The notes below the pieces were generated by a model. The model was not told the origin of the DNA. It did not search any database and saw nothing but the letters and a program-made list of their open reading frames with translations. From contig JAEOTQ010000088.1 in assembly GCA_016839785.1 (NCBI GenBank), positions 1 to 52,707 on the forward strand: 52,707 nt of DNA, in the 5' to 3' direction. This DNA comes from Candidatus Hodarchaeota archaeon. Its GTDB lineage: Archaea > Asgardarchaeota > Heimdallarchaeia > Hodarchaeales > Hodarchaeaceae. This document shows, one piece after another, positions 22,079-47,571 of this stretch (position 1 is the first letter of the stretch; each line of letters begins with the position of its first letter). Made by a program: the position numbers and the translations under genes.

Positions 22079-22975
22079 CTAGAGTGCTTGCATTAACTTC
22101 GACTTGTCAATAGTGGCAACGCCAATTACTTTATCTGCACCACCATAATATACAAAATACTTGTTTTCCTTTTCTACTACACCGCAGGTGAAACAAACGT
22201 TTGGAACATCTCCATGAATCTCATAATCTTCTTCTGGAATCATAATTGGGTCTTCAATTCTCGAAATTATTTTACTAGGCTCATCTAAATCTAATAACAT
22301 CGCTCCTAGACTATAATGGAGATTCTTATCTACCCCATGATAAAATTCTAACCAACCTTCGTCAGTCTTGATCGGTGGAGCCCCAGCTCCAACTTTGAAA
22401 TCTTGCCAGCTATTCTCAATAGGTGCAAAGAATTTGGTGTGATCAGTCCAATTTTTTAAATCTTTGGAATAAGCTATCCACATGTCAGGTTCAGGAGCAC
22501 GATGCATCAAGACATATCTTCCATTAATTTTTTCAGGAAAGAGGACTCCATCCTTGTCTCTATATTCGTTAATTATAGTTCCATGCCTTTCAAACTTCTT
22601 AAAATCCAGAGTAGATGCGACTCCGATATGAAATTCAACATCCCCTGCAGGAATGAGTGTTTTGACTGCAGTATAGGTAATATAGTATTTATCATCTAAA
22701 AATGTTATGCGTGGATCTTCAATCCCAAATTTCTCATACTCAGCCTCAGGAACCATAATTGGATCTGCAAATTGCTCAAAATTATACCCATCTTTACTCA
22801 GAGCCAGTCCGAATGTTGAGATATATGTGTCATAATTCCCAATGGCACGATAAAGTAAAAGTACTTGTTCATTATATATAGTTGCAGCACAATTGAATAC
22901 TCCTCCTTTTTCCCAATCGTGATTATCATTCGGTACAATAATAGGATTTTTAGAATATCTTGTTAGAGAAACCAT
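22079..22975 (-). CDS. GH130 beta-mannoside phosphorylase
   Basis: FNCAA, EDPRIT, KDGVLFPEKINGRY..MHR, KVGAG, YHGV, GDVPNVCF; the basic phosphate-binding residues (R, K, H) are present. Confidence 0.9.
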   Translation of the reverse strand: MVSLTRYSKNPIIVPNDNHDWEKGGVFNCAATIYNEQVLLLYRAIGNYDTYISTFGLALSKDGYNFEQFADPIMVPEAEYEKFGIEDPRITFLDDKYYITYTAVKTLIPAGDVEFHIGVASTLDFKKFERHGTIINEYRDKDGVLFPEKINGRYVLMHRAPEPDMWIAYSKDLKNWTDHTKFFAPIENSWQDFKVGAGAPPIKTDEGWLEFYHGVDKNLHYSLGAMLLDLDEPSKIISRIEDPIMIPEEDYEIHGDVPNVCFTCGVVEKENKYFVYYGGADKVIGVATIDKSKLMQAL

Positions 22976-23103
22976 AATTTTCTACCTTTTATTTATGAAT
23001 TTGTGATCAAAAAATCAACCAAAGCCAGGATGATATGAAGAGATTAAGTCTTGACCTAAATTAGATAAAAATCTTCATTTTTTTGAGGTATTTCTTGTTA
23101 TTA

Positions 23104-25647: not shown

Positions 25648-26112
25648 ATGCCATCATCCAAAAAATCAACTCTCGTAAAAGAAGGTAAATTAGAAAAAAA
25701 AGCTCTTCACGTCACTAAAGAGGAATTTTTTTCATTAAAACCTATTCAAAGCACATTCATAACTATTTTAAAGGAGAAAGATGATCAATTATTGTTGGAA
25801 CTTAACATAACAAAATTTAAGAAAAAATCTTTAAGAAAAAGATTAATCCCATCACCAAATTATAAGAAAATCCAATTAGACAAACTAGGAAAATTTACAT
25901 TCGAATTATGTGATGGTAATAACACAGTTAAACAAATCATTAAAAAATTTCAAGAAACGTTTAAATTAACGTTAACTGAGACAGAAACTGCTGTAACAAA
26001 ATATCTGACAATTCTTAATGCCCGACACTTAATCGGGTGGCAAATTCCTCAAGAGATGATGGAAAAAACAAACTTGAAAGAAAAAAGTGTTGAGGAGATA
26101 TCTCTAGATTAA
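25648..26112 (+). CDS. PqqD-family (RRE-like) protein
   Basis: LDKLGKFTFELCDGNNTVKQII...AVTKYLTILNARHLI matches the PqqD/RRE pattern. Confidence 0.75.
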   Translation: MPSSKKSTLVKEGKLEKKALHVTKEEFFSLKPIQSTFITILKEKDDQLLLELNITKFKKKSLRKRLIPSPNYKKIQLDKLGKFTFELCDGNNTVKQIIKKFQETFKLTLTETETAVTKYLTILNARHLIGWQIPQEMMEKTNLKEKSVEEISLD

Positions 26113-28302: not shown

Positions 28303-28680
28303 ATGTCTGAAAACACCATTCAATGTCCCTGTGGCCAACCTATTCATGATTACACGGATTACTTACTCTTGTATTTGAAAAAAGACTCAGATGAAGGAGG
28401 CGAGATTGATATTCTTTGTAGAAACGATTATTGTTACTTAAGAGAGTTAGGCTACTTGAAATTTACCATTGATAAAGCTAGGAAGGTTACATTAGAAAAA
28501 GGTAAATTCTATGCGCCATATGTAACATGGAATGCAACAAGGATGTCAGAAGCTCGTACAGTAGAAATCCTTAAAATACATCTAGTAGACATTACAGAGA
28601 AGCTCGTGCAATGGGAGAAGGTCATAAGGGGAATTGATAAAGAAAAGAAAGCATTAAGTTCTGAGGAGGCAACTGCGTGA
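28303..28680 (+). CDS. Small Cys-rich (CPCG...CxxxxC) putative Zn-binding protein
   Basis: Four cysteines; its stop overlaps the next start (GTGA, 28677-28680). Confidence 0.65.
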   Translation: MSENTIQCPCGQPIHDYTDYLLLYLKKDSDEGGEIDILCRNDYCYLRELGYLKFTIDKARKVTLEKGKFYAPYVTWNATRMSEARTVEILKIHLVDITEKLVQWEKVIRGIDKEKKALSSEEATA

Positions 28681-29279
28681 GCTTAGATTTACCAGAACCT
28701 GATTTTTCACTCTCAGAGGTATTTTATTTATCTTATTCAAATATCAAAAGGAGATTTTTCCGTTCTATTATAACAGCGTTGGGAATTATTTTAGGAATCG
28801 CATTTATGGCTGCCTTATTGACAAATTCACTTATTTTAGATTGGCTACAGACAGAATCAGGTGTTGAAGCATATCAATACTGGTTAGTAGGGATTTCATT
28901 GATAGTTGCCTTCGGGGGAATTACCAACTCCATGTTGATGGCTGTTAACGAAAGAGTGAAGGAAATCGGGGTTTATAAGTGCATTGGAGGATTAGATTCC
29001 CACATTGTTCGTCTATTCATAGTAGAAGCCCTACTCTTAGGAATATTGGGTGGTTTCTTTGGAGCAATAATTGGTATCGGGATGGGAATTGGAATAAATT
29101 TAAACCGTGCTTCTTTAGACGAATTAACAGTCATTCTTGAAGCAAATTTCTCAACGCTACTCATACTTTTTTCAGCTTGCATTCTGATTGCAATAATACT
29201 AACATCACTCGCGACCTATATCCCAGCTCGAAGAGCTTCTAAACTTTCACCAGCTGAAGCTTTAAGATACGAAAATTAA
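28677..29279 (+). CDS. Minimal FtsX/MacB-type ABC permease lacking an extracytoplasmic domain
   Basis: NIKRRFFRSIITALGIILG, NSMLMAVNERVKEIGVYKCIG, LFIVEA, PARRASKLSPAEALRYE; 4 TM segments. Confidence 0.9.
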   Translation: MSLDLPEPDFSLSEVFYLSYSNIKRRFFRSIITALGIILGIAFMAALLTNSLILDWLQTESGVEAYQYWLVGISLIVAFGGITNSMLMAVNERVKEIGVYKCIGGLDSHIVRLFIVEALLLGILGGFFGAIIGIGMGIGINLNRASLDELTVILEANFSTLLILFSACILIAIILTSLATYIPARRASKLSPAEALRYEN

Positions 29280-29294
29280 TATGGTGGTTTTAAT

Positions 29295-30017
29295 ATGAGT
29301 TTAGAAGAATTTGTGGTTGAGATTGATGATGTTCACAAGGAATATACCTTAGGAAAGGTTATTATACATGCTCTTCAGGGAATTTCTTTTAAAATTAAGC
29401 GAGAGGAATATGTTTCTATAATGGGGCCCTCTGGATCAGGAAAAAGTACAATTTTCAATGCAATTGGCGGTTTGGATACAGTTACAAGCGGAGAAATTTA
29501 TATAGACCAAGTAGACATAGCTGAATTGGATGCTTATGAATTAGCATGGTTAAGGAACAGAAAAATTGGATATATTTTCCAAACATTTAACTTACTGCTT
29601 GCATTTTCTGCACAAGAAAATATTGAAATTCCAATGGTATTCGCTGGAGTTCCAAGAGAAGAGAGGAGAAAAAAATCAAAGCATATTCTGAATTTGGTAG
29701 GCTTAGGTGATCGAGCTAGGAATAAACCAGGTCAGCTATCAGGAGGACAACAACAGCGAGTGGCAATAGCACGTGCACTAGCAAATGATCCCGCAATTAT
29801 ACTTGCCGATGAACCAACTGCAAACCTCGATTTAGCAACTGGTTTAGAAATAATTGGATTACTCAAAAAGCTTAACGAAGAGCAAGGAACGACAATTGTC
29901 TCCGCTACACACGATCTAAAAATGATTAGCATAAGTGATAGGATTATCTGGATTCGAGATGGTAGAGTGGATAGAATTGAAGACCGAGCTGACATCCAAG
30001 TAGATGCAATGAGTTAA
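29295..30017 (+). CDS. ABC ATP-binding protein, LolD/MacB family
   Basis: GPSGSGKST, IGYIFQTFNL, LSGGQQQRVAIARAL, ADEPTANLD, THD. Confidence 0.95.
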   Translation: MSLEEFVVEIDDVHKEYTLGKVIIHALQGISFKIKREEYVSIMGPSGSGKSTIFNAIGGLDTVTSGEIYIDQVDIAELDAYELAWLRNRKIGYIFQTFNLLLAFSAQENIEIPMVFAGVPREERRKKSKHILNLVGLGDRARNKPGQLSGGQQQRVAIARALANDPAIILADEPTANLDLATGLEIIGLLKKLNEEQGTTIVSATHDLKMISISDRIIWIRDGRVDRIEDRADIQVDAMS

Positions 30018-30021
30018 TGGA

Positions 30022-30768
30022 GTGAAGAAATTGTCAGAAGATATAACCATACGGATGGAGAATGTTGTAAGAACGTATCAAATGGGTACTCAAAAAGTTA
30101 AAGCTTTAGATGGAATTTCTATATCCATCCCACGGGGCGAATTTCATGTCATTATGGGTCCATCTGGATCAGGGAAAACAACATTTCTTAATATGGTTGG
30201 TGCACTAGACGTACCTTCGGAGGGAGAAGTCTATTTTGAGGGTGTTCCTCTTTCTAAAATGACTCAAAAGCAATTAGCTTCCTTGCGATCTTATAAAATC
30301 GGATTTATCTTTCAAACATTTAATTTAGTTCCAGTGATTACGGCTTTGGAAAATGTTGCCCTACCTTTAATCTTCCAGAAATATCCCCGAAAAGAACGAA
30401 AAAAGAGAGCAGAAGAAATGTTGGAACGTGTTGGTTTAGGCGATCGCATGAACCATACTCCTGATGAATTATCGGGAGGACAACAACAACGTGTGGCTAT
30501 TGCCCGTGCACTCGCGGGAAAGCCTAGTCTTGTCTTAGCGGACGAACCAACAGGAAATTTGGACTTAAAAACAGGATTTTCAATCGTTGAATTATTAAGA
30601 GAAATTTCACACGAAACTGGAGTAACTGTAATAAATTCGACTCACGATTTAAAATTAATTGATATTGCTGATAGAATTTCGTGGTTACGAGACGGTACTA
30701 TAACAAGGACCCAAAAAAGGATTGATGTATCAATATCCTCCGAAGATGTGACTATTCCATCATATTAA
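30022..30768 (+). CDS. ABC ATP-binding protein, LolD/MacB family (second paralogue)
   Basis: GPSGSGKTT, IGFIFQTFNL, LSGGQQQRVAIARAL, ADEPTGNLD, THD. Confidence 0.95.
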   Translation: MKKLSEDITIRMENVVRTYQMGTQKVKALDGISISIPRGEFHVIMGPSGSGKTTFLNMVGALDVPSEGEVYFEGVPLSKMTQKQLASLRSYKIGFIFQTFNLVPVITALENVALPLIFQKYPRKERKKRAEEMLERVGLGDRMNHTPDELSGGQQQRVAIARALAGKPSLVLADEPTGNLDLKTGFSIVELLREISHETGVTVINSTHDLKLIDIADRISWLRDGTITRTQKRIDVSISSEDVTIPSY

Positions 30769-33795: not shown

Positions 33796-35982
33796 ATGAG
33801 TTTAGACGCCGAAAAAACAGAAAATTCAACAGATATAGATGAACTAGATCAGCCTCAAACTGGATTAACAAAAAGATCGTTATCTATTGGTTTAGTGGTC
33901 TTATTATTATGGGGATTAATGAGTATTTTTGCTGGAAACTTTGGAGAGGCTCCAGCAATTTTCATAGAGGAAATGAGTATTCTCTTCCCCTTCTTCCTGT
34001 TAGTCTTTGGTCTTCAAGCTCTCGAAAGAGTACGAATAAGAGGTTTAAAACTAACCCGTCAGGAGTTAACCTTTATATGGGGTTTATTGGTGGTTGGTAT
34101 CCCCATAACTAATTCTGGGTTTCTTGCTGGAAGATTATTATTAAATGCAATGTACCCCCTTAGGGGTGAGTCTCCACCACCCTCAAATTTTGCACCTTTC
34201 TTCTGGGGCCCGTCTTCCGATGAGTACTATGCCTCATTTGATGGAGGTGTTTTACCTAACCTTGGGGAGTGGTTAATTCCAATTATATTTTGGGCAATAA
34301 CATCTATTGCTTGGGCTTTTATGTGTTTATTTTTAATCCAGATATTCAGAAAACCTTGGATCGACGTTGAACGATTATCTTTTCCACTTGCACAGCCAGT
34401 TCAAGAGCTTTTAGAAGCACCACTTGCTAAACCACATGAAAGAAGAAGGAGGTACACGTGGTTATCCTTTGGAGCATTACTAGGTATAATTTGGTCCTCA
34501 TTTGAGTTTCTGAGAGTCGTTTATCCTGAATGGGGAGATATATTCGAAGATATAGATCTCTTAGGAATTCAACCTGGAAAAGCCTGGGCAGTCCGGATTG
34601 ATTTCGGACAGGTATTCGGTCTTAGCCAATTTTTACCTAATGCTTTTCTTGAGTCACGTCCAGAACCAGTAATGATTGCTGTGTTTCTCTTAGTATCCTT
34701 GAATGTACTACTATCATCATTAATTTTCTTCTTGTTATTCTGGGTGCTTATCCCAATTTTTCAAACAGAAATGGGTTTGATAGCACCTCCTACTGGCCCT
34801 CCCTGGGCATCACCTCCTGATATTGATTTAGGTTTTGCTAAAGGAGGTGGAATGTCTCTCTTCACATTTGGTGAATGGGGAATTCTTTTCGGATGTGCGT
34901 TTTGGGCAATAATTTTACAACGCCGGTACCTTTGGAGAACAATTAAAGCTATTTGGGATCCCAGTGTCATAGACGAAACTAATGAACCTATTCCTTATCG
35001 TGCCGCATGGATTGGATTATTCGTCTGTTCACTGATTTTTACAATGTCTTTAATTCTAAGTGGAGCACCATTGATCGGTGCTATTTACGCTGTAGTATTC
35101 CTCCTAATCGCATATGTGGCTGGAGCGAGGCTTCGAGCGGAAACCGCAGGTATGGGAATAGGGCATCCTGGATACGTTCATCTACATGGTATACATTCTG
35201 TACGAGTTCTCATTGGAGTAGATGGTGACAATAAACCATTAGATCAACCAGGGTTCTATGTAACTGCATTGTGGATACAATTTTTCCAGAGAGATGCAGC
35301 TCCAGCTTCCCCTGCTATCTCAGCATTAGAATCTTATAATATCGCTCGGATCACGAAGACACGAACCAGAGATATTTTTAAAAGTCATTCTATTGCAGTA
35401 GTTGCTATTATTATCTTGTGTTTGACCGTGTGGCCTCTTTTCGCGTATTTCTATGGTCTGAGTAATGAATGGTCAGGAGAAGCGGGTCATAACTTCGATT
35501 ATACCGAAGCAGCATATCAATTAGTAACTGGAGGTTACTGGGATTTCACGAGTTATCGGGTTGATATATGGGGACAAGCAATCTTAGGAATAGTTTTCGC
35601 AATAGGGCTTAACATTATTCGTCTAGGTAGCCCTTGGTTCCCATTAAATCCGATCGCAGCTCCCATTCTTCTTAGCCTACGTGGTGGTTACTGGTGGTTA
35701 CCAATCTTAATAGCCTATATCCTAAAATATGCCGTAGTAAGAATTGGTGGAACAAGAGCTTATACAACAGTTCTTTTACCTGGAGCCGTAGGTTATCTTT
35801 TAGGCACAGCTGGCTTATGGGGTTTCTCACTGGTCTCTATTATGATTCCCGCAATCTTCCCAATGATAATATTTAATTCTGCAGCAGAATTTATCTATTA
35901 TTATGGCGTAGTCCTCCTCATTTGGATCCTTTCTATCGTAGGAATCTTTTATTTCTTCTTAAAAGGATTAATTGGTAGATGA
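33796..35982 (+). CDS. Polytopic OPT-superfamily-like membrane protein (DUF6785/DUF6784-like)
   Basis: About 16+ TM segments; GLTKRS, LTRQEL, W..W..P..FW, WIDVERLSFPLAQ, RLRAETAG, PWFPLNP, YILKYAVVRIGG...Y. DUF assignment is from recall. Confidence 0.7.
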   Translation: MSLDAEKTENSTDIDELDQPQTGLTKRSLSIGLVVLLLWGLMSIFAGNFGEAPAIFIEEMSILFPFFLLVFGLQALERVRIRGLKLTRQELTFIWGLLVVGIPITNSGFLAGRLLLNAMYPLRGESPPPSNFAPFFWGPSSDEYYASFDGGVLPNLGEWLIPIIFWAITSIAWAFMCLFLIQIFRKPWIDVERLSFPLAQPVQELLEAPLAKPHERRRRYTWLSFGALLGIIWSSFEFLRVVYPEWGDIFEDIDLLGIQPGKAWAVRIDFGQVFGLSQFLPNAFLESRPEPVMIAVFLLVSLNVLLSSLIFFLLFWVLIPIFQTEMGLIAPPTGPPWASPPDIDLGFAKGGGMSLFTFGEWGILFGCAFWAIILQRRYLWRTIKAIWDPSVIDETNEPIPYRAAWIGLFVCSLIFTMSLILSGAPLIGAIYAVVFLLIAYVAGARLRAETAGMGIGHPGYVHLHGIHSVRVLIGVDGDNKPLDQPGFYVTALWIQFFQRDAAPASPAISALESYNIARITKTRTRDIFKSHSIAVVAIIILCLTVWPLFAYFYGLSNEWSGEAGHNFDYTEAAYQLVTGGYWDFTSYRVDIWGQAILGIVFAIGLNIIRLGSPWFPLNPIAAPILLSLRGGYWWLPILIAYILKYAVVRIGGTRAYTTVLLPGAVGYLLGTAGLWGFSLVSIMIPAIFPMIIFNSAAEFIYYYGVVLLIWILSIVGIFYFFLKGLIGR

Positions 35983-36003: not shown

Positions 36004-39000
36004 ATGGCCCAGTTATGTAATCAAAATAGGAGAATAATGATCTTGAGATTCACCAGAACCTTATTCTTCTTTTTTTTCCTATTCTCCTTTGTGGTAAGTA
36101 TTCAAATTTTTTTTGAGGAAGTTCTCATTCAGGAAGATGGAGAAGAAAGAATAGTTAATCTAACAGAACCAGAAGCATTTAACTCGATATCAAAGACAAT
36201 CGATTTTCCAGGATTTCAAGGACTAAGTGAGCAGATAAATCAAACCTATTTTGCTAATATCCAAAGTCATATCACAAATTTTTCCACGTTTGATCAAAGT
36301 AGGTTTACCGGATATCCTGGTTATGAGTCTGCAGCCGCTTATATCCGAGATTTTTTTATGAGTCAAGGGTTAGAGAATGCATCTTTCCTTACTTACCCTC
36401 TTTTAGTTCCACTTGATAAAGGAACTATGATTGAAGTGAATGGAGAAAATTATACAGCCCACACCCTCATGCCTAATTCACTCAATCCTGGAAAAACTGC
36501 TTCAGATGGTGTAACTGGCAATCTGATTTATGGAGGTAAAGGTACTTATTCCGAATTAGATGGTAAAAAGATAGAAGATGCAATTGTTGTGCTAGAATTT
36601 AATTCTTTGGACAATTGGATTAATGTAGCTAGTTTAGGAGCTAGTGGAGTTATTTTTCTACCCACTGACGAAACAAATCGCTTTGAGGCTGAAGAAAAGG
36701 TGTTGGATATCCCTCTTCACTTCCCAAGGCTCTATATTGAAAATCAAACAACTGCTACAGCAATTAAAAATTTATCAATGCAAGGAGATCAACAAATCAC
36801 AATTTTTTCTGATATGGAATGGACATCAATAGCTGCAAAGAATGTCATGGGATTATTACCAGGGATAAGTGAGGATATCATAATTATTTCTGCTTATTTC
36901 GACTCAGCATCAATCGTTCCAGCTATAGCTCCAGGTGCTGATGAAGCCTGTAGTATTGCATCAATGTTAGAGTTTATTCGAATTATCAAGGATAATAGTA
37001 TTGTACCTGAGAAAACCATCATGTTTTTAGCTCTTTCAGGACATAATCAGCAAGCTGCTGGAGCAAGAAATTTCGTGGATCAGTATTATAGCTCCTTAAA
37101 TGTAAATAAAGGGATCAAACTATTTCTTTCTTTCGATCTTTCGTCCACTAATAATAAGATCGCTATCAATCCCTATGGTTATTTGTACAAATTCCAACTT
37201 CAATATACAACTGGAAATCGACTTATTACAAAATTAAAAGATATTGCTCAAGATTTCTTCCTTAGTTACACAGATGCAATTATGAGTGAATCGGACTATT
37301 CTTTTAATGTAAAATCATATGTCACAAATCAACAATTTAAAGATATTGCTCCTATAACATTTGTCGGTGATCATGAACCTTTTATTGCATCAAATGTATT
37401 AGGATTATCTTTATTTACATCCGAATCCCATCGTTTGAATTTTAACACTCCCACTGATTTGTACACACACATTTCGACGCGAGAATTTGATTTTCTAAAA
37501 AATCAAGTTGTCTATAGCCTTTGTGCTCTCGCGCAACTTATAGTTGATGTAGATCTTAACCCAGTTTTATCAAATCTGGAAAACAAACAGTTCCAATTAA
37601 AAGTCGCCACAAATGCGCATGTTGGTTACGGATACATTGAAGGATTTGTAAAACAATATGATGAGACAAATGCATGGTTAATTGATGTTCCAAACGCGCT
37701 CGTTAGAGTTAGGGCTTATAGCAATCGTGATAGCAGTTTTGGAGAATATTCTTTCATTACACGAGCAGATGAAACTGGATATTACCAAATCCAAGGAGTC
37801 TCCTCCTCACAACCAGATTATCCTTTAGTATTTATTGTAGATGCATATTTGTTTGATTCTGAAGGGAACCTAATAAAAGCCATTGATCTTGGAACGAGAG
37901 GACAGTATTTCAAAAATTCTAACTCTTTAACAAAACGAAGAACCACTGTAAATCCTACTGTATTTGATTGTGGTACACTTAGTATTTTTGGTATTTATCA
38001 TCCCTTTACACAAGTTAGTGCTGCTCAAAATCTTGATTATACCGTAATAGATCCCCAAACTCGAAATCTATTTTTCTCTTATGGATATACTGGATTAAAA
38101 ACAGTGAGTTTAGTGTTCGTACAGCCAGATGTTCCTTCAATTGCAGTAGGAAAATATAACGATGGTATACTTGGTGTCTACGCAACAAATTCTGATAATC
38201 AAACTTTACGTGGAAAAGGCTTCACTCTAGGGCATGGAGAGTTTGAAAATCTTGGTTACTCCTCATTTATCACTGCTAGAGATCTCCTCTCAGCTACTCA
38301 GACATATATATCCTTGTATAGCCTTTATAATATCTATGATGCATTAGTCGAGAGCACTTATCACACAGCCTCAGAGTTATTAAATACTGCAACTGCTTTG
38401 AAAAACGACTATCAATATTCACAGTCAATTGCAACAATAATAGAATCACATACTTGGGCGTATGACTCTTTTAGACAAGCAAGAAAAGTTATACAAGATG
38501 GAACTACCACATCCATATTCTTTGCGATTCTCCTAATTCCATTTGCTTTTGCTTTATCCGCATTATTATTTGATTTTGACAGCGGGATTAAGCGAATCTT
38601 AGCTACAAGTACAATATATGCGGCCGTATTTGGATTCTTTTATTTGATCCATCCTGGGATGCACCTTTCAAGAAATATTGCAATGATAATTATAGGAGTA
38701 GTTGCAACAATATTCGTATTTCCCGCCTTATTCATGATATATCAAGAGGGATATGACTTTCTCAAGAGTTTACGTCTCAAACAGCTTGGTTCACATTTTG
38801 CTGACACTTCAAGAACTTCAACTTTGTTAATTGCTATGAGTACTGGAATCTCAAGAATGAAGAAACGAAAAGGTCGAACAGTCATTGCACTATCAGGGAT
38901 TGTACTCATTACGTTTTCCTTAACTCTTTTCACATCCGCAACAACTCAGATTACTACGTATTCTAAAGGAGAGAACCAAGATATCGCTTATGAAGGCCTT

Positions 39001-40542
39001 TACATCAGAACAAAGGATTGGGAATTTTCGCTTCCTGAAGAAATAATTGAGAATTTAAGAGTCACATACGGAGATCAGATACAAATCGCATCTAGGTGGT
39101 GGCTCTATCCACCATCAGATACTTCGGAATTCCCTAACGGTTACGTAAAAGTAGAAACTCCAGATGGGAATGAAAAATGGGAAGGGGACGCTATATTAGG
39201 TATGACGGCTGAGGAACAAAATTTTCATTCTCTCGAGACAATATTAGTAGCTGGCCGATGGTTTACCAGCTCTAATAGTTCGGAGTGTGTACTGGTTGAT
39301 GTCATCAGCAATAAATTAGGTGTAGCAGTTAATGAAACTGTTATTTGGGCTGGCCAAGAATTTATAGTTGTAGGTATAATTAGTTCTCAAGGACTTGACA
39401 GAATTAAAGATTACGACACAGAAAAAATTACACCAAAAAATAATCATGCACCAGCTCCAAATGTTCATATACAAGCAGATGAAACTTTTATATTACCAGC
39501 CTACACAGTAAAGTCTTTTGGAGGAACTATCTCCTCTATTTCAATTACAGCAAAGAATAAAACGTTACAAGAGCTCTCTTTATATGAAGAGATTGCAGGA
39601 AAAATTTCCTCAACCTACGGAAGAAACTTACTAGTTAGAGTCGGAATTAATGATGAAGTAACGATTTACAAAAGACAACTCCAAAGCCTCGGAGAGGGGT
39701 TAGGAGACCTTGGAATTCCACTGTTAATAGCAGTATTATTGATGATAAATACTTCAGTTAGTACTGTGTACGAATCAAGAAAGGAAATAAATACATTTAC
39801 TTCATTAGGATTGGCACCAGTTCATATTGCTGGATTATTCTTAGCAGAATTTCTTGTTTATGCTGTTATTGGATCTGTAATTGGGTACCTTATGGGTATT
39901 ACTTCAGCTGTAATATTGTCGGCGTTGGGTATATTTCCCGAGTCACTAGCAATTAATTATTCGTCAGGATCAATAGTCTCTGCATTAGGTTTGGGTATCG
40001 GGGGAATTCTCCTTAGTACAATATACCCGCTAAGAATATCAGCGAAGATGTCGGTTCCTTCCGTTCGACGAACATGGGAGCTAAAAACAACTTATGAAGA
40101 GGATGGTAAGACTTGGACTATTCCTCTACCCTTCGTTGCTGCAACCGAACAGGAAGCAGAGGGGATTATTGAGTTTTTAAGAGAATATTTTGTAATTTAT
40201 GAGTCAGAAAGTGTAGGAGGGGCATTTTTCGCGCAAAATATCTCGACAAGTGAAGCTGATAGAGAAAGAAGAGAGAAGCATCTAACTGCCATTGTCAACT
40301 TAGCACCTTTTGATGCAGGATTGAAACAGGAAGTGGATATCTACACTTACCTTGAGGAGATTAAATTTCACTACATATTCGAAATTAATTTAGTTCGCCT
40401 TGAAGGAATTTTATTAGCTTGGGAATCTTCAGTCCGACGATTCGTTGACAGTATTAGAAAGCAATTGTTAATTTGGAGAAGTCTTCCTAAAGAGGAAAAA
40501 GCGCTTAAATCAGAGAAATTCAGAACAAATTTAAAAAAATGA
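36004..40542 (+). CDS. Large membrane protein: PA/M28-peptidase-like ectodomain + TM bundle + MacB/FtsX permease + C-terminal domain
   Basis: SRFTGYPGYESAA, PA-like GNLIYGGKG, SAYFDS...PGADE, GDHEPF; three central TMs; RKGRTVIALSGI, GRWF, VYESRKEI..FTSLG, FLAE, YPLRISAKMSVPS. Confidence 0.85.
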   Translation: MAQLCNQNRRIMILRFTRTLFFFFFLFSFVVSIQIFFEEVLIQEDGEERIVNLTEPEAFNSISKTIDFPGFQGLSEQINQTYFANIQSHITNFSTFDQSRFTGYPGYESAAAYIRDFFMSQGLENASFLTYPLLVPLDKGTMIEVNGENYTAHTLMPNSLNPGKTASDGVTGNLIYGGKGTYSELDGKKIEDAIVVLEFNSLDNWINVASLGASGVIFLPTDETNRFEAEEKVLDIPLHFPRLYIENQTTATAIKNLSMQGDQQITIFSDMEWTSIAAKNVMGLLPGISEDIIIISAYFDSASIVPAIAPGADEACSIASMLEFIRIIKDNSIVPEKTIMFLALSGHNQQAAGARNFVDQYYSSLNVNKGIKLFLSFDLSSTNNKIAINPYGYLYKFQLQYTTGNRLITKLKDIAQDFFLSYTDAIMSESDYSFNVKSYVTNQQFKDIAPITFVGDHEPFIASNVLGLSLFTSESHRLNFNTPTDLYTHISTREFDFLKNQVVYSLCALAQLIVDVDLNPVLSNLENKQFQLKVATNAHVGYGYIEGFVKQYDETNAWLIDVPNALVRVRAYSNRDSSFGEYSFITRADETGYYQIQGVSSSQPDYPLVFIVDAYLFDSEGNLIKAIDLGTRGQYFKNSNSLTKRRTTVNPTVFDCGTLSIFGIYHPFTQVSAAQNLDYTVIDPQTRNLFFSYGYTGLKTVSLVFVQPDVPSIAVGKYNDGILGVYATNSDNQTLRGKGFTLGHGEFENLGYSSFITARDLLSATQTYISLYSLYNIYDALVESTYHTASELLNTATALKNDYQYSQSIATIIESHTWAYDSFRQARKVIQDGTTTSIFFAILLIPFAFALSALLFDFDSGIKRILATSTIYAAVFGFFYLIHPGMHLSRNIAMIIIGVVATIFVFPALFMIYQEGYDFLKSLRLKQLGSHFADTSRTSTLLIAMSTGISRMKKRKGRTVIALSGIVLITFSLTLFTSATTQITTYSKGENQDIAYEGLYIRTKDWEFSLPEEIIENLRVTYGDQIQIASRWWLYPPSDTSEFPNGYVKVETPDGNEKWEGDAILGMTAEEQNFHSLETILVAGRWFTSSNSSECVLVDVISNKLGVAVNETVIWAGQEFIVVGIISSQGLDRIKDYDTEKITPKNNHAPAPNVHIQADETFILPAYTVKSFGGTISSISITAKNKTLQELSLYEEIAGKISSTYGRNLLVRVGINDEVTIYKRQLQSLGEGLGDLGIPLLIAVLLMINTSVSTVYESRKEINTFTSLGLAPVHIAGLFLAEFLVYAVIGSVIGYLMGITSAVILSALGIFPESLAINYSSGSIVSALGLGIGGILLSTIYPLRISAKMSVPSVRRTWELKTTYEEDGKTWTIPLPFVAATEQEAEGIIEFLREYFVIYESESVGGAFFAQNISTSEADRERREKHLTAIVNLAPFDAGLKQEVDIYTYLEEIKFHYIFEINLVRLEGILLAWESSVRRFVDSIRKQLLIWRSLPKEEKALKSEKFRTNLKK

Positions 40543-40560: not shown

Positions 40561-42462
40561 ATGAGTGAAAGTCTAGAAAACAATGATAATGTGATTGGAA
40601 CAGAAGAGCACAAAGAGGAATTTCAAAGTGGATTCACATGGCGAGTTGGCCTTGCAATAGTATATTCAGCAGTTATTATTCAACCCGCAGCCATTTATCT
40701 TTATTTTGTTACTAATCAATGGTTTATTGGAGCTGTTTTGAACACAACCATTGTTTTATTTGCAGTATTCGCTAAATTAGCAGACAATCCCCTTACTAAA
40801 CAAGAAGTCTTCATGCTGATCAATGTCACGAGTACAGCTCTTGGCATGGAAATGATTGTTGCCTTGGTTTTTAATTATTATTTAAGACATCACCCCATCA
40901 TAAGTTCACAACTTGTAAACGGGGTACCCCTCTCTGCATTGATTCCTGATTGGTTTGCCCCAGCATATTTTGGTCCTATAGAGACTTTACTAAATCCAGT
41001 GTTTATCCTTCCATTAGGGTTACTCATAATTAATGCACTTCTGGCAAAATCAACGGACATTTCTTTGGGTATTGTATTCAACTATTTATACACTAAAGTC
41101 GAGGTATTACCATTCCCAACAGCTGAAGTTGAAGCTGAAAGAGCTAGGGCATTGACATGGGATGATAAGAATAAATTACAGGTTTTTTCAGTTAGTGCGA
41201 TAATAGCAAGTTTTGCAGGATTGATTCTCTACTTTTTTCCCCTAGTTTTTGATATAACATTGATTCCCATCCCTTGGTTTGATTTCACTCCATCTGTTGA
41301 AGGATTTTTTAATGGTGCAACATTTGGAATTGCTACTGATATAATTTTCTTTGTAACTGGATTTATACTTCCTATGAGCGTTGTTGCTAGTATTTTAATC
41401 GGATCTCTCTTCGTAAACTTTCTTGTCAATCCATTACTCGTTGCAAATAATATTGATATAGGCTGGGAAAAAGGAATGTCCCTTGTAGACACCTTCAATA
41501 ATTCTCAGCTAAACTTCTGGTTACCCTGGACAATTGGTCTACTTCTAAGCTCTGCATTAATCCCCATTTTACGAAATCCAAAAATCTTTATTACAACTAT
41601 AAGAGACTTGAGAAAGCTATCCCAAGGAAAAGGAGAAGAAATGGACGGTGGTACTCCCAAATTAAGCCTATTGTTTGGATTTTTTGTATTGGGAACTTTA
41701 GGTTCTGTTGCAGTCGCTTGGTTAATCATTCCTGACCTTTCACAGCAAATGATTGTCATACTTATCATATTAACATTAGGTTGGAGTTTTTTGTCTTCTC
41801 TAACAATGGCATACGCTTTTGGAATAACAGCTAATCTTCCAGTTATACCTTACGTTAAAGAATCAGCTTTTGTTGCAGCTAATGCACCTGTCGGTGGTAA
41901 AATATGGTTCATGCCATTAGTGATTTCACAAGGAGGAGCAGGATGGGTAGCTACATTCAAAACAGCAGACTTAACGTATACGAAGAGAGGGAGCTTAATA
42001 AAAGCACACTTCTTAGCTTCGTTTGTAGCTTGGATAGCAGGTGTCTTTTGGGTTTCAGCCCTTCTCTCGATTGCCCAAGTACCCTCTGTAATTTTCCCAG
42101 TTCCATTTTGGCCTCTAGAGGTCGGGAAAATTGCTACTTTTGTAACAAATCCAACAGCAATAATTGATCCTATTATCATCGGAATTGCCTTTATTGCCAC
42201 TTTATTCCTATATATTCTAGAATGGGGTACTCCGATTCCAATATCAGTAATTTCTTTCTCCGTGGGAACAATAACGGTTATTCCTTATGCGCTTACTACA
42301 TTTTTAGGTGCACTTTTTGCTCAATTATTGAAGTCACGAATGGATAACTGGAATACAAATCGAGCAGTTATACTAGCTGGTACAGGTGCAGGAGTCGGGA
42401 TTGTAATCGCTCTGGCTACATTCTTGTCTTTAATTAAAAACACAATTGCTTTACCATTATAG
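40561..42462 (+). CDS. OPT-family-like oligopeptide/oligosaccharide transporter membrane protein
   Basis: About 15-16 TM segments; SGFTWR, LTKQE, IPDWFAP, VEVLPFPTAEV. Confidence 0.7.
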   Translation: MSESLENNDNVIGTEEHKEEFQSGFTWRVGLAIVYSAVIIQPAAIYLYFVTNQWFIGAVLNTTIVLFAVFAKLADNPLTKQEVFMLINVTSTALGMEMIVALVFNYYLRHHPIISSQLVNGVPLSALIPDWFAPAYFGPIETLLNPVFILPLGLLIINALLAKSTDISLGIVFNYLYTKVEVLPFPTAEVEAERARALTWDDKNKLQVFSVSAIIASFAGLILYFFPLVFDITLIPIPWFDFTPSVEGFFNGATFGIATDIIFFVTGFILPMSVVASILIGSLFVNFLVNPLLVANNIDIGWEKGMSLVDTFNNSQLNFWLPWTIGLLLSSALIPILRNPKIFITTIRDLRKLSQGKGEEMDGGTPKLSLLFGFFVLGTLGSVAVAWLIIPDLSQQMIVILIILTLGWSFLSSLTMAYAFGITANLPVIPYVKESAFVAANAPVGGKIWFMPLVISQGGAGWVATFKTADLTYTKRGSLIKAHFLASFVAWIAGVFWVSALLSIAQVPSVIFPVPFWPLEVGKIATFVTNPTAIIDPIIIGIAFIATLFLYILEWGTPIPISVISFSVGTITVIPYALTTFLGALFAQLLKSRMDNWNTNRAVILAGTGAGVGIVIALATFLSLIKNTIALPL

Positions 42463-43150: not shown

Positions 43151-43321
43151 AAGTACTCATCAGGAATAATTATAATTTAACTGACTTATAATAGACTTTA
43201 AAATTCATTCGTTCCCCTTTAGACTAATTACTTTAAACGAGAAATAATCTTTTAAACCGCTGTTATTTTTTAATTTGATCAATAAAACAAAATACATCGT
43301 TGTTTCCCCTTGGTGGTTAGT

Positions 43322-45559
43322 ATGAAAAAGTCATTAAAATCCTTAATCTTTATTGTATTACTATTGTCTCTTCTAACTCAAGTAAATATTGGTCAGAGTG
43401 AACCAAAAACTGCTTCTGTTATAGAAGAACGAATATTATCTAAAACTGTTGCAACTGATGAGATGATCAAAGTAAACATCAATGTTACTGCACCTAGTAC
43501 TCATGATCTTCCAGCTTCCACAGCCATAATAATCAAATTAACCGAGATTGCCCCTAATCTACCAGTCTCGATTGATCCTTTTGGTATGAATACTCCTGAA
43601 AGCTCGGATGATATTAAATGGAATGCAGCGTATGTAACGCACAACGGTTCATTGATACCTTCTCAAGTAGATGATGTAGATGGCATCACAGGTTTTTCGG
43701 AAAATGATGAATTGCTGTTTGCGCTTCCAGAAGCAGTCGCCCTAACTGCAGGACAGAGTGATATCTTTACTGTCTATTTTAGTCCATTAGATTTAGATCT
43801 CCCCCCCCCATATTTTCCAGAAGTCTGCAGTATCATTGTTTATCCAAAACTGGAGGCAATTGATGCTTTACATTCAGATATGGTTGACACAAATGACGGA
43901 GCATTCTATATTGGGAATGGTCTCGTACAAGGGGCAGTATTAGTTGCAGCCGCGTGGTCTTCGGGATGTGTATATGAAATTTCGCTCTTAGATGACCAAG
44001 GTGAATCCCGATTTGATATAATTAAACAAAAATTCCCAGAAGAGGGGCAAAAGTGGAAATGGGCTCGGTTTGCTCGGTTTGAACAATTCACATCGCAAAA
44101 TCAATATGCTACTCGCCCTTACCCTGGCAAATTAATTGAAATGATCCCTGGGCCAATTCGTGCTCGAATTACTGTGCAAAGTACACAACCTTATACAAGA
44201 GGTGAATTTGGAGGGCCTGTCACTAAATTTGATCTTTTTGGCTTATTTACTTATGATGTATATGTTAATCAACCCTATCTTGATTATTCCATGGACATTA
44301 CAGGCCCCAGTGCTGGCAGTTACTCCGAGCTTGAACTTGAATACCAAAACCGAGAATGGGGTGGTGGAAGGGTTGGTACTTTTTATAAGGAAATTTATGT
44401 TCCAGGAATAGGATGGGTTATGCGAGGCCCAGATGATACCGATATCCACAGTATCGATGCAAGCAGCTTTGATTCCCCGTGGTATCTCGAGGCCTTGAAT
44501 GGAAAAACTATTATTCCTCCCCAATGGGAGGAACCAAACGACGATGAACTTGGTTTTGGATTCATTTTTGATGATATTGGTTTTAGTAATATCACTTGGA
44601 GTGCTTCAACTGAAGGGGTAAAGAATCTGTATCATGCTGCTCAGTTTCCTTTTAACACTAGGTACCATCCATTCGATATTGATACTCTTGGAGGCCAAGA
44701 CAAAATAGCCTTTATGGAAGATAGATATGTAGACTATTTGAGACCTGACCCGATACTCACCTTTAATAGCTCTATAATCTCTGTAGCTGACATACCTTTT
44801 GAATATCTATTTGTATCTGAACCAGAGGTCGATCTTGATTTTGATAATTATATCTTACAGATTGAGAATATTACCGCTTTTGCTACTGATACAGCAACAT
44901 TTGTTAATGATACAACCGCCATTAGTGCCACGTATAAGATACTGAATTTTAAAGAAAAAACAGAAACTGGAATAACAGGGGATCTAACATGGAATTCCAC
45001 ATCTCAAACGTGGGGGGTTCAAGATCTCGACATTTCAGCACTAAATCTATTTAATCCTTTCTTAGTCTTAGCAAACTTTGAAACGTCTACACTTACTGGG
45101 GAAAGTCCTCCTTCTGAACGCTGGGGAGGTGGTGCGGATGTTTTTCCTCCAATAATTGGTGCTGTTTCCAGAGATCCTTCTGATATCGTCAGGGATTCAC
45201 AGATGGTGAATATAAGTGCCTCTGTAGAAGATGATGAAGGGGAGGTCACATCAGTGATGTTGTCTTACTATAATGGAACGTGGTACAATATGACAATGCA
45301 ACCTGCATATGGGTTGTACAAAGCATCTATACCTCCTCAAGCTCAGGGAACCAAAGTCGAGTATAAGGTCACCGCCTATGATGATGCTGAACCCCGAAAT
45401 TTTAACACTTCAGAGATTTACAGTTACACTGTTGCCGTAGAATATTCCCCGGGACAAGGCTTAGTTCCACTATTCCTTGGTGGTGGAGTACTCATTGCTG
45501 CGGTAATTCTCGCGTTAAAATCTGGTGCACTTCATAGACTGAAGTATGATGAAGTATAG
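43322..45559 (+). CDS. Surface-anchored protein: DUF4861-like N-terminal region, Ig-like domain, C-terminal TM
   Basis: Signal peptide MKKSLKSLIFIVLLL; IPSQVDDVDG...DELLF; GPIRARI; DVFPPII...VEYKVTAYD Ig-like module; C-terminal TM. Confidence 0.65.
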   Translation: MKKSLKSLIFIVLLLSLLTQVNIGQSEPKTASVIEERILSKTVATDEMIKVNINVTAPSTHDLPASTAIIIKLTEIAPNLPVSIDPFGMNTPESSDDIKWNAAYVTHNGSLIPSQVDDVDGITGFSENDELLFALPEAVALTAGQSDIFTVYFSPLDLDLPPPYFPEVCSIIVYPKLEAIDALHSDMVDTNDGAFYIGNGLVQGAVLVAAAWSSGCVYEISLLDDQGESRFDIIKQKFPEEGQKWKWARFARFEQFTSQNQYATRPYPGKLIEMIPGPIRARITVQSTQPYTRGEFGGPVTKFDLFGLFTYDVYVNQPYLDYSMDITGPSAGSYSELELEYQNREWGGGRVGTFYKEIYVPGIGWVMRGPDDTDIHSIDASSFDSPWYLEALNGKTIIPPQWEEPNDDELGFGFIFDDIGFSNITWSASTEGVKNLYHAAQFPFNTRYHPFDIDTLGGQDKIAFMEDRYVDYLRPDPILTFNSSIISVADIPFEYLFVSEPEVDLDFDNYILQIENITAFATDTATFVNDTTAISATYKILNFKEKTETGITGDLTWNSTSQTWGVQDLDISALNLFNPFLVLANFETSTLTGESPPSERWGGGADVFPPIIGAVSRDPSDIVRDSQMVNISASVEDDEGEVTSVMLSYYNGTWYNMTMQPAYGLYKASIPPQAQGTKVEYKVTAYDDAEPRNFNTSEIYSYTVAVEYSPGQGLVPLFLGGGVLIAAVILALKSGALHRLKYDEV

Positions 45560-45609: not shown

Positions 45610-46062
45610 GCATTTTATTCAGTAGATTGACAACTGTGTCTTTAGGTGGTCTAGATGACTTCAAAATAAATTTTGATTTGTGGAATTGCCCAAGAAGAAA
45701 TACATATTAATTTTTTTCTTGTTTTATAAGAAAAAAAACGGGTAGTTAGCATGAATAAATTTGTCAGACAATTTTTTTAAGAAAAATTCTGGACAGGATG
45801 AGTCACAAATCCGTTATCCAGCAGGGTAGCAACAAGAGAAGGATTACTAACCATGGGAACTACTTAGGGATCAGTACGATAACAGTGAAGAATATCGTAG
45901 GGCACTTCTAATAAACAATCTAGTGATTATATATTATCCAACCCGTCTAACTCACCCATATTATGTTCAAGTTTAATATAGATTCGTAGTCATACTTAAA
46001 AAAGATAAACGATTAACAATAATTAAGGTAGAAAACACCTCTGTGTGTTTTTTCTATTCGTT

Positions 46063-46073
46063 AAAGGTTTAAT
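46063..46073 (+). promoter_or_regulatory. Candidate BRE/TATA box for the PGF-CTERM gene
   Basis: AAAGGTTTAAT about 45 bp upstream of ATG 46117. Confidence 0.35.
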
Positions 46074-46116
46074 TTTCAATATCTTAGCCTATTATAATTT
46101 AATATTGGTTTTTAAA

Positions 46117-47571
46117 ATGCAAAAAAGAAATATACAAATTCTATCAATAGGTCTTTTATTCCTATTATTTTTAATGCAGTCCCCTCAATCTGGGGCAGCT
46201 TCAGCTTCAGCGTACAATGCCGCTACCATCGTTGTTACAGCAGGTAGTGACGCCTTAGTTGTTGGTACTCCTATTATTATTGCTGGTTCAGATTTTTCAG
46301 GTGATTTCGCATTAGCAACAGCAGTTGTTATGGATGGCGCGACAGCCCTTCCTACACAATATGATGCTGGACTTGATGAACTAGTTTTCCAACTTCCCGC
46401 TGCACTTGCAGCAAGTGGTTCAAAAACATTTGAAGTACAAGCAGACGCAACAGGATCTTCAAATGGTCAAACATCAATTACGATGACTCGTGGTGACTAT
46501 AATGAAACCTACAGCGATTTCCTCCCAGCTTGGTCATCTGCATACATAATGAATGGTTCTGCTTTGGCCAATGATGTGCATTCTATCGGTGATGTCATTT
46601 GGGTAGATACTGACTGGGGTGTCCTTTGTTTACAAGTTGAAGCTAGCTGGAGACATGGCACCTGGAAACATGTCATTATGAAAGATAATAATTGGGATGT
46701 TGTTAGCGGATTTCTCAACGCAACTAGTGACTGGCGATGGCGCTGGGAAACTGGTCTCTTCCAAGATGCTGATGAAGGATGGCAAGTTGGCGGTCGTGGA
46801 CCTGATACTATCGAAATTGAATCCGCTGGACCCGTTCGTGCAGTCATAAGAGCAGTTGCAAACTCTCCTCACAGAGATTTGGACCAATACCTTGTTGAAA
46901 ATGCTAATGCTACTCGAACATATACAGTCTATAATGGAATCCCAGGAATTACTCAACATTTCGCAATTACAGGTCCTAACGCTACTCAGGCACACACTGA
47001 CTGGAGTGTCCTCAGTGAAGTGTTGGAACCCCTCAAAATGAAGCATCAACACTTGGATTCCACCTCTAACACTCTTGGATCAAATAATCTTACAAAAGTT
47101 TATGTTGCAGGCGATCCAACTCCAAGTAATGAGACTTACACACGAAATGCTGTAGCTAATTTAACTGCTGTAACTGATTCCTATTTCGCCGTATACAATG
47201 ACACTGATACGCGCGGGTACGTATACAATTGGGGTCCCTTTGAGTATCTAGATAATATTACCAATCTCGAGTTCGCTAATCAAATCGTTATGAATTACCG
47301 CTTCGATTATTTCCCTGCAGCAGGTTTTAACCGCTATTGGATACCTTTCAGTTCTTTCACAGGTAATATAGGTGATCATGCCGCTTCTCTGAATACTAAT
47401 ATGAAGTCCTTAATGGAGGCATCGTACACATTTGTTATAACAGAACATGATCCACCAACAACTACTACTACTACCACTACCACCGAAGATGGTGGGGCAC
47501 CTGGATTTGAACTAGTATTAGCAACCCTTAGTCTAGTAGGCGCATCGGTATTCATTAGAAAGAGAAGATAA
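46117..47571 (+). CDS. PGF-CTERM surface glycoprotein, distant paralogue of 43322..45559
   Basis: Signal peptide from MQKRNIQIL (ATG 46117); LPTQYD..LDELVFQLP; GPVRAVI; poly-Thr, APGF, TM, RKRR; many NxT/S sequons. Confidence 0.8.
   Translation: MQKRNIQILSIGLLFLLFLMQSPQSGAASASAYNAATIVVTAGSDALVVGTPIIIAGSDFSGDFALATAVVMDGATALPTQYDAGLDELVFQLPAALAASGSKTFEVQADATGSSNGQTSITMTRGDYNETYSDFLPAWSSAYIMNGSALANDVHSIGDVIWVDTDWGVLCLQVEASWRHGTWKHVIMKDNNWDVVSGFLNATSDWRWRWETGLFQDADEGWQVGGRGPDTIEIESAGPVRAVIRAVANSPHRDLDQYLVENANATRTYTVYNGIPGITQHFAITGPNATQAHTDWSVLSEVLEPLKMKHQHLDSTSNTLGSNNLTKVYVAGDPTPSNETYTRNAVANLTAVTDSYFAVYNDTDTRGYVYNWGPFEYLDNITNLEFANQIVMNYRFDYFPAAGFNRYWIPFSSFTGNIGDHAASLNTNMKSLMEASYTFVITEHDPPTTTTTTTTTEDGGAPGFELVLATLSLVGASVFIRKRR
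47458..47484 (+). repeat. ACN trinucleotide run encoding a 9-Thr linker
   Basis: Seen directly; precedes the PGF motif. Confidence 0.85.

Follow-up and report, generated by a model that had tools for sequence, protein, structure and literature searches.

The 52,707-nucleotide contig JAEOTQ010000088.1 of Candidatus Hodarchaeota archaeon (assembly GCA_016839785.1; this whole stretch, positions 1 to 52,707 of the forward strand, is referred to here as the window) encodes a 1512-residue membrane protein, the giant protein, in which an extracytoplasmic head with the fold of M28 peptidases shares one chain with a MacB/FtsX-type permease. As judged by residue mapping in the window protein and in two sets of family sequences (103, including the query, and 145), the canonical co-catalytic zinc site of M28 aminopeptidases is gone from this head, and the proposal of an earlier sequence-only reading that it is a pseudo-peptidase is borne out to that extent. 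Our best explanation, which we regard as probable as a whole, is that the head no longer works as a canonical aminopeptidase and that this PA-bearing M28-fold unit with its lost zinc centre serves for binding or gating, without catalysis, and is set in motion by ATP-driven mechanotransmission. As a whole, the protein is a previously undescribed form of type VII ABC (ATP-binding cassette) permease; within the full-text literature searched, a coverage that excludes subscription journals, there was no description of the family or of DUF6785.

The M28-like head and its metal site

From N to C terminus the giant protein comprises a PA/M28-like head, beta domains, a stalk, three extra transmembrane (TM) helices, a MacB/FtsX permease and a C-terminal cytoplasmic domain (Table 1). 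A hydropathy scan found hydrophobic segments at residues 11–43, 833–915 (three), 957–980, 1228–1256, 1267–1312 and 1322–1343, and eight TM helices are predicted in the single chain. The head matched Peptidase_M28 (PF04389) over residues 280–499 (E = 8.5e-14; 52.2 bits against a cut-off of 21.3), and this cut-off was passed by 30 of the 31 family members scanned with Pfam; the PA domain (PF02225) exceeded its own cut-off in three of the 31 and was weaker in others. An AlphaFold2 model of residues 40–840, built on a 96-row alignment (pLDDT, the per-residue confidence, 93.0; pTM, the predicted overall score, 0.91), showed an M28 core of alpha/beta fold with an inserted PA domain, followed by beta-rich domains and then a three-helix stalk. 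PA-domain aminopeptidases were its best Foldseek matches, and fold alignments with PA-bearing aminopeptidases and with TfR1/GCPII extended over approximately 380–405 residues.

Residues of the head were mapped onto the aminopeptidase of Aeromonas/Vibrio proteolytica (AAP) in two ways, by phmmer and by alignment of the family profile to the active enzymes 2ek8 and 6hc6. The motifs concerned were SAYFDS (residues 296–301, with Y298 and D300), DSASIVPAIAPGA (300–312), APGADE (309–314, with D313), SGHNQ (345–349, with H347 and N348), LSFDLS (375–380, with D378), GDHEPF (455–460) and FNTPTD (480–485, with N481), all of which fall within nucleotides 36892–37458, inside the segment 36870–37460. Their equivalents in AAP are Y298 for H97, D300 for D99, D313 for D117, H347 for E151, N348 for E152, D378 for D179 and N481 for H256. 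Less firm than the rest are the D378 and N481 pairs, which are based on a weak second HMMER stretch together with unambiguous LD and TPxD anchors, and the D313 pair, which comes from the 2ek8 alignment and from a gap re-placed by hand in the phmmer alignment. According to a table in PMC7522609, Zn1 of AAP (1amp) is held by D117, E152 and H256 and Zn2 by H97, D117 and D179. The five ligand positions read Y, D, N, D and N in the window protein, in which two of five ligands are kept (D313 and D378); by this mapping, only the bridging Asp is left of Zn1, a Tyr stands in for the His of Zn2, and H347 takes the place of the general-base Glu (E151 of AAP). The alignments thus place the window protein outside the definition of an active M28 enzyme by its five zinc ligands and general-base Glu. 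The degenerate motifs that the sequence-only reading had quoted, AYFD, GHN and FNTPTD in place of the canonical H-x-D, E-E and H-T-x-x-D, are present in the open reading frame (ORF) as it gave them, as are the retained GAD and DHEPF, and to these D378, which it had not counted, can be added as a retained residue.

When the window protein was compared with PDB sequences by phmmer, AAP was the only clear match (E values from 1.6e-7 to 3e-6), with nicastrin (4uis_A) at 0.63. The top AAP entry was 2anp, an engineered E151H mutant, which ranks first since it shares its His at the general-base position with the window protein.

Conservation of the altered site across the family

A homologue search over 5.8 billion proteins returned 102 homologues, giving the set of 103 with the query. 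These were, by their source names, Heimdallarchaeota/Hodarchaeales proteins of 48–99% identity, in a long form of about 1470–1500 residues and a short form of about 1250 residues, together with proteins from Bathyarchaeia/Thermoproteota (about 28% identity) and from Desulfobacterota-like bacteria (about 25%). An exhaustive HMMER search with the head alone (residues 40–520) gave 1748 cluster representatives at E ≤ 0.001, 527 of them at E ≤ 1e-30; the best 150 of the 1748 (representatives of 50%-identity clusters), minus five already in the first set, formed the second set of 145, in which 125 sequences were at least 1200 residues long, that is, permease-fused. A search for longer fused forms of the giant protein (2647–5000 residues) returned none at E ≤ 1e-10, which is weak evidence of their absence.

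The complete ligand set occurred in 0/103 and 0/145 sequences. Glu was found in neither set at the E151 position (0/103 and 0/145) or at the E152 position (0/103 and 0/145), the former being His in 100/103 and 119/145, and the H256 position was His in only two and three sequences, respectively. At the H97 position His was present in 25/103 and was otherwise replaced by Y, F or N according to clade. Asp was kept at the D99 position (D300) in 103/103 and 144/145 but at the D117 position in 89/103 and only 48/145, and the D179 position was Asp or Glu in 62/103, with His in the bacterial clade and Lys in many Thermoproteota. On this evidence from alignments, loss of the catalytic site is ancestral to a large prokaryotic family, which numbers hundreds of 50%-identity clusters, and is not a local event. 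Another constellation, D300, H347, Q349, D378, E458, T482 and D485, is conserved family-wide at former active-site positions, and therefore a remodelled, selected pocket is indicated rather than decay; the pocket itself is predicted from the correspondence of these residues with active-site positions of AAP.

The same conservation could be read as the mark of an enzyme. On that account the head would have a remodelled, perhaps mononuclear or metal-independent site, with H347 as general base and D300, D313, D378 and E458 binding metal or substrate, and would serve at the cell surface to shorten peptides or glycopeptides ahead of their uptake by the OPT-like permeases. The frequencies of H347 and D300 given above (100/103 and 119/145; 103/103 and 144/145) fit this account, as does the fact that E458 and D378 are mostly kept, and peptide products would suit the OPT-like neighbours described below. 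The best sequence match, the E151H mutant of AAP, is termed 'functional' in the title of 2anp, and a precedent is offered by GPAA1, a degenerate M28 protein for which a zinc site of Asp, Asp and Tyr has been modelled, according to PMC7522609. Against this, the only zinc-site positions kept are D117 and D179, and both are variable, the first being Asp in 48/145 and the second Lys or His in whole clades, while the Zn1 site (E152, H256) is gone in essentially all members and position 298 alternates between H, Y, F and N by clade, which is unexpected for a ligand. Would-be ligands that vary from clade to clade argue against a remodelled enzyme, and canonical M28 activity could be supplied by other PF04389 genes of the genome, which score much higher (125 and 106 bits). 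We therefore consider an enzymatic head unlikely.

We give slightly less credence still to a head without either catalysis or ligand binding, which would be a structural spacer or oligomerisation scaffold, for example one fixing height in a surface layer, with its conserved residues needed for folding only. Several conserved positions are indeed Gly/Pro/Ala structural motifs, and some products of the gene cluster are anchored at the surface, having both a signal peptide and a C-terminal anchor. Yet few residues of the head are as well conserved between very distant clades as the polar ones of the former active site (H347, Q349, D300, E458, T482 and D485), which exceeds the needs of a scaffold, and the PA domain has been kept, as in ligand-binding relatives.

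The permease half

The C-terminal half of the giant protein matched FtsX (PF02687) at residues 1240–1350 (E = 4.1e-11) and, just under the cut-off of 27, MacB_PCD (PF12704) at residues 959–1130 (26.3 bits). The family profile matched MacB among PDB sequences through this half (4.9e-17), and a Foldseek search with an AlphaFold2 model of residues 830–1512 (pLDDT 87.4, pTM 0.62) returned MacB (5gko, 1.3e-12) along with LolCDE, Spr0695, HrtBA, YbbAP, YtrEF and BceAB. Isolated periplasmic domains of MacB were also matched by fold (3ftj and 5f9q, with TM-scores of 0.63 and 0.62). The protein thus has an FtsX domain (TM2–4), the four-TM topology in which an extracytoplasmic domain separates TM1 from TM2, and, by its fold and the PF12704 match just below cut-off, a MacB-like periplasmic core domain. 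Since this permease fold and the head lie in the same chain, the protein is a type VII ABC permease to which a head has been fused in cis, in agreement with the fusion to an ABC permease that had been read from the sequence. Within the second of the three extra TM helices that precede TM1, a His-Pro pair (residues 883–884; nucleotides 38650–38655) is invariant in all 70 aligned family sequences.

Two shorter paralogues in the same genome, of 1251 and 1257 residues (G000:C181:1871-5626, L008; G000:C146, L009:9426-13199), are 50–56% identical to the giant protein and are without residues ~983–1233, which form the periplasmic core domain of MacB type; the genes around them are unrelated and include neither DUF6785/OPT-like genes nor an ATPase. 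At one bacterial metagenome locus (L066:9911-14736) the giant gene is split into two ORFs of 1149 and 452 residues.

Gene neighbourhood and candidate partners

The giant gene is flanked by genes for two polytopic proteins (Table 1), which belong to homologous families (hhalign probability 97.5%, E = 8.4e-12, 491 columns). PF03169 (OPT) did not match the 633-residue protein of the window, but it did match three of ten of its relatives at E ≤ 1 (best 1.7e-4, with 20.9 bits against a cut-off of 25.8); 11 of 40 homologues carry precomputed PF03169 annotations, two being named OPT/YSL by NCBI, and an Atlas look-up gave the same OPT/YSL lead. Sequence-profile searches of the PDB with both OPT-like families returned nothing at E ≤ 10. 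By these profile comparisons, the flanking proteins are distant OPT/YSL relatives that fall short of membership of PF03169.

Synteny was examined in six related genomes (orthologues 60–85% identical), in three of nine Brockarchaeota/Thermoproteota loci and in nine of 25 bacterial metagenome loci, those with long flanks. All six Hodarchaeales-type loci kept the order of a 125-residue Cys-rich protein, small FtsX, ABC1, ABC2, an 808-residue protein on the minus strand, DUF6785, the giant protein and the 633-residue protein, and three more genes downstream were kept in five of the six. The core of a DUF6785-like gene, the giant gene and a gene for a 640-residue protein was kept in 3/3 of the Brockarchaeota/Thermoproteota loci. 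At all nine bacterial loci, genes for a small FtsX, an ATPase, the giant protein, a DUF6785-like protein (supported by blastp in 9/9 and by hidden Markov models in 8/9) and a 633-like protein followed one another on one strand; here the small FtsX was about 32% identical to that of the window, and the ATPase, immediately upstream of the giant gene, was 59–61% identical to window ABC1. This bacterial order links the small FtsX and ATPase genes of the window (28677..30768) to the giant protein. The gene neighbourhood is therefore conserved across two domains of life, and a module in which the giant permease is accompanied by a small FtsX, by ABC ATPase(s) and by a pair of paralogous OPT/YSL-like permeases has been kept in a bacterial clade as well as in Asgard archaea and Thermoproteota.

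Set beside the identity of ABC1 between the window and the bacterial loci (59–61%; L049-L069), that of the giant protein is only about 26%, a contrast that points to constraint of very uneven strength or else to separate histories of transfer.

Table 1. Coordinates in the window of the giant gene, its domains and the genes of its candidate partners.
Feature	Position	Strand	Evidence
Giant membrane protein, whole gene, 1512 aa	36004..40542	+	ORF list, Pfam, 102 homologues, hydropathy
N-terminal signal-anchor helix, aa 11–43	36034..36132	+	Hydropathy
PA-type domain inserted in M28 fold, ~aa 140–269 (boundaries approximate)	36421..36810	+	PF02225, fold alignments
M28-fold core with degenerate metal site; contains segment 36870–37460	36811..37563	+	
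Beta-rich domains after M28 core, aa 529–752	37588..38259	+	Secondary structure of AlphaFold2 model
Three-helix stalk running into membrane, aa 753–839	38260..38520	+	Model helices 714–735, 741–762, 766–800
Three family-specific extra TM helices, aa ~833–915	38521..38748	+	Hydropathy, model, family alignment
MacB/FtsX-type permease module	38872..40053	+	TM1 aa 957–980, periplasmic core ~981–1229, TM2–4 1233–1350
C-terminal cytoplasmic alpha/beta domain, aa 1370–1512, family-specific	40111..40539	+	Without Pfam match
DUF6785+DUF6784 polytopic protein, 728 aa, OPT-like, upstream	33796..35982	+	PF20581, E 1.6e-34
Polytopic protein, 633 aa, divergent OPT/YSL-like, downstream	40561..42462	+	Weak PF03169 in relatives
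Small FtsX-type permease, 200 aa, probably the other permease subunit of this system	28677..29279	+	PF02687, E 7.5e-17
Two ABC ATPases, ABC1 and ABC2, 240 and 248 aa, probable motor	29295..30768	+	PF00005, E 6.6e-35 and 6.7e-34

Proposed mechanism

We propose that in this genome the giant protein would work with the small FtsX and the two ABC ATPases encoded 6–7 kb upstream and with the two flanking OPT/YSL-like permeases. Its head would stand outside the cell on the stalk, joined through the three extra membrane helices to the MacB/FtsX (type VII ABC) module, so that ATP hydrolysis in the cytoplasm could be passed through the FtsX helices to the periplasmic core domain, then to the stalk, and finally appear as movement of the head. 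With its remodelled pocket (D300, H347, Q349, D378, E458, T482 and D485) the head would retain or gate a substrate on its way to or from the OPT-like permeases. That ATP hydrolysis moves the head is suggested by analogy with LolCDE, FtsEX-EnvC and YbbAP-TesA; mechanotransmission in type VII ABC systems, and the control by FtsEX and YbbAP of an extracytoplasmic hydrolase or hydrolase-like partner, are described in the literature (PMC5985334, PMC7668044, PMC12646458). Binding of a ligand by the head, its driving by the ATPases, its contact with the OPT-like proteins and the nature of the substrate, a peptide or glycopeptide or another glycoconjugate, are what we infer. With regard to substrate, the OPT relatives suggest, by analogy, peptides or metal chelates, and the GH2 and GH130 glycoside hydrolase (GH) genes together with glycosyltransferase genes suggest a glycan or glycoconjugate.

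Several observations weigh against this explanation. No ABC ATPase was found within 10 kb of the giant gene in the two Thermoproteota loci scanned with Pfam (L028 and L036), so that ATP coupling may not extend to the family as a whole, and in the window an 808-residue gene on the opposite strand separates the ATPase and small FtsX genes from the giant gene. The substrate context points two ways, with GH2 and GH130 genes near archaeal modules and glycosyltransferase genes upstream of bacterial ones. A His that hardly ever varies at the position of the general base, alongside the conservation of D300, D378 and E458, is just as compatible with a catalytic site that has been remodelled, and the wording of the 2anp title bears in the same direction. 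A complex prediction for the 633-residue protein with residues 830–979 of the giant protein (the extra TM helices and TM1) scored 0.01 against a mark of 0.32, was run without controls and is evidence neither way.

More speculatively, the system, which Asgard archaea and Thermoproteota share with several bacterial phyla, may be a hybrid transport machine of an undescribed kind, in which the dead-peptidase head is the substrate-recognition element and the type VII ABC mechanotransducer is physically coupled to two OPT-fold secondary permeases; by its ATP-driven motion the head would load these permeases with, or unload from them, a peptide, glycopeptide or glycoconjugate that comes from the surface. 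We put this forward tentatively, as an idea that we would not expect to hold in full.

Relationship to nicastrin and nicalin

Hodarchaeales are the closest known archaeal relatives of eukaryotes, and the sequence-only reading had raised the possibility of a special affinity of the head to nicastrin and nicalin. Nicastrin is a single-pass type I glycoprotein that serves the presenilin complex, and nicalin, also a single-pass protein, has NOMO and TMEM147 as partners. When the family profile was compared with PDB sequences, the best matches to the head were 2ek8 (7.4e-28), YwaD (1.3e-21), TfR1 (3e-16) and AAP (3e-15 to 1.7e-13), followed by PaAP (2e-9), nicalin (2.9e-9 for 7tm3_7 and 8.1e-9 for 6w6l_5), GCPII (1.4e-8) and nicastrin (5.2e-6 to 2.8e-5). 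Nicalin therefore ranked below the PA-domain aminopeptidases, TfR1 and AAP and level with PaAP. Active PA-M28 aminopeptidases, TfR1 and AAP all score better, and an affinity to nicastrin or nicalin no closer than that to generic M28 enzymes is the very outcome that the earlier proposal had named as telling against it. The resemblance to nicastrin noted for DSASIVPAIAPGA is real as a shared M28 motif, but the DS...APGA block concerned also aligns to the active 2ek8, 6hc6 and AAP.

The Nicastrin family (PF05450) gave no match at E ≤ 1 for the window protein. Among the 31 scanned members it matched 12 at E ≤ 1, the best at 20.3 bits against a cut-off of 25 that was never passed; these sub-threshold matches start at model position 2–3 and most end by ~60–113, which is the DS...APGA block, and PF04389 outscored PF05450 in every member matched by both. 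In Asgard archaea, 14 of 400 genomes matched the family at E ≤ 1e-20, and a single genus-level group accounts for 13 of these. This patchy occurrence, together with the sharing of the family with Thermoproteota and bacteria, argues against a vertical forerunner of the eukaryotic subunits.

It would accordingly be very surprising if the head proved to be a specific prokaryotic relative, possibly a forerunner, of nicastrin and nicalin. Both proteins are significant profile matches (2.9e-9 for nicalin; 5.2e-6 to 2.8e-5 for nicastrin), PF05450 is present below threshold in 12/31 members, the closest homologues are named Heimdallarchaeota/Hodarchaeales by their sources, and a presenilin-like gene lies in the same genome, on another contig. 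Opposed to these points are the much better scores of active bacterial PA-M28 aminopeptidases, TfR1 and AAP with the same profile, the E value of 0.63 for nicastrin against 1.6e-7 for AAP in the single-sequence search, the failure of PF05450 to exceed its cut-off or to match the window protein where PF04389 always scored higher, and the generic M28 nature of the nicastrin-like stretch. The eight-TM fusion to an FtsX permease is likewise unlike nicastrin or nicalin, and the family, common in Thermoproteota and bacteria, occurs in only those 14/400 Asgard genomes, nearly all of one genus-level group. As far as profile ranking can tell, the head is neither a specific relative of nicastrin or nicalin nor a member of either family. 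For eukaryogenesis the result is negative: there was no sign that the Hodarchaeales-type protein is the stock of nicastrin or nicalin.

The presenilin-like ORF (380 residues, G000:C235:5347-6357, at loci L037/L038) matched PF01080 in two stretches of 33.6 and 23.9 bits, or 47–49 bits summed against a cut-off of 34.3, and none was found in 14 control genomes. It is unlinked to any of the three M28-FtsX genes of the genome.

Comparison with known systems

The head shares most with the bacterial PA-domain M28 aminopeptidases (Aneurinibacillus AM-1, 2ek8; B. subtilis YwaD/BSAP, 6hc6; P. aeruginosa PaAP, 8acr), which likewise have an M28 core with an inserted PA domain, are its best profile and Foldseek matches, and have the DS...APGA, LD and TPxD motifs in common with it. 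These enzymes, however, are soluble or secreted and are active with a di-zinc site and the set H, D, E-E, D, H, whereas the head has three of five ligands and the general base replaced and is fused to approximately 1000 more residues of membrane machinery. AAP (1amp/1rtq) gave the highest structural Z for the core (29.3; root-mean-square deviation 2.5 over 269 aligned residues), and its E151H mutant (2anp) has His at the general-base position, as does the giant-protein family, but AAP is without the PA insert and has a full di-zinc site.

TfR1 and GCPII (M28B) also have the PA insertion in the M28 core. Each of these eukaryotic type II proteins crosses the membrane once, is without a permease and has, directly behind the protease-like domain, a C-terminal helical domain for dimerisation; GCPII is active. 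In the model of the window protein, the M28 core is followed by beta domains and then by the three-helix stalk. In its way of working, the head would be most like the non-catalytic PA-M28 heads of the TfR1 type. Nicastrin, nicalin and GPAA1 are inactive or altered M28-fold subunits of eukaryotic membrane complexes, and they differ from the giant protein in topology, in partners and in site substitutions: the family has His at the site, against what is probably a Glu in the DYIGS region of nicastrin.

The C-terminal half shares the four-TM FtsX fold and the periplasmic core of type VII ABC systems (MacB, LolCDE, FtsEX, HrtBA, YtrEF, YbbAP-TesA, BceAB), and the gene set of small FtsX, giant FtsX and ATPase resembles LolC/LolE/LolD. 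In contrast to the known systems, the hydrolase-like module of the giant protein is in cis and catalytically degenerate, and the protein also has three additional TM helices, a cytoplasmic domain of a novel kind at its C terminus and an obligate neighbourhood with two OPT-like homologues of secondary transporters. Pseudo-peptidase M28 heads have been known from eukaryotic receptors and complex subunits, and ABC systems of type VII are known to drive extracytoplasmic hydrolases or inactive activators; the giant protein joins both themes in one chain, tied to OPT-like permeases. Once its substrate is identified, a new machine of the envelope or of uptake would be defined for uncultured archaea and bacteria from sediments.

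Other genes in and around the module

The soluble 125-residue Cys-rich protein (CPCG...C..C; 28303–28680) is without a Pfam match, and its gene overlaps the start of the small FtsX gene by four bases; an ORF of similar size (121–129 residues) occupied its position in five of six related loci. Downstream, the conserved genes at 43310–45559 (749 residues) and 46045–47571 (508 residues) encode proteins anchored at the surface, each having a signal peptide and a helix at the C terminus; the second also contains a poly-Thr linker and matches PGF-CTERM weakly (E = 0.08). The window further encodes a pyroglutamyl peptidase C15 (51698–52333, E = 3.6e-54) and a PqqD-like protein (25648–26112, E = 2.7e-6). 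A reading of the cluster in terms of ribosomally synthesised and post-translationally modified peptides or of radical-SAM enzymes, for which this PqqD-like gene and radical-SAM genes near the Brockarchaeota module were considered, was set aside; such genes are not kept in the nine bacterial loci, and none was named by Pfam upstream of the module in L062, the bacterial locus scanned.

Upstream of the module in the window (22079–25551) lie a gene of GH130, the beta-mannoside phosphorylase family, and a GH2 mannosidase-like gene, and GH2 mannosidase-like, BNR sialidase-like and GH4 genes lie beside a Brockarchaeota module (L028:1051-3525). These glycoside hydrolases near archaeal modules point to a possible glycan theme. 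At one bacterial locus (L062:1616-8433), genes for GT28-like and GT4 glycosyltransferases, a histidine phosphatase and a DUF2334 protein precede the operon on the same strand, and similar upstream ORF sizes were observed in L058, L064 and L065. This run of bacterial glycosyltransferase genes hints at glycoconjugate synthesis or export rather than uptake.

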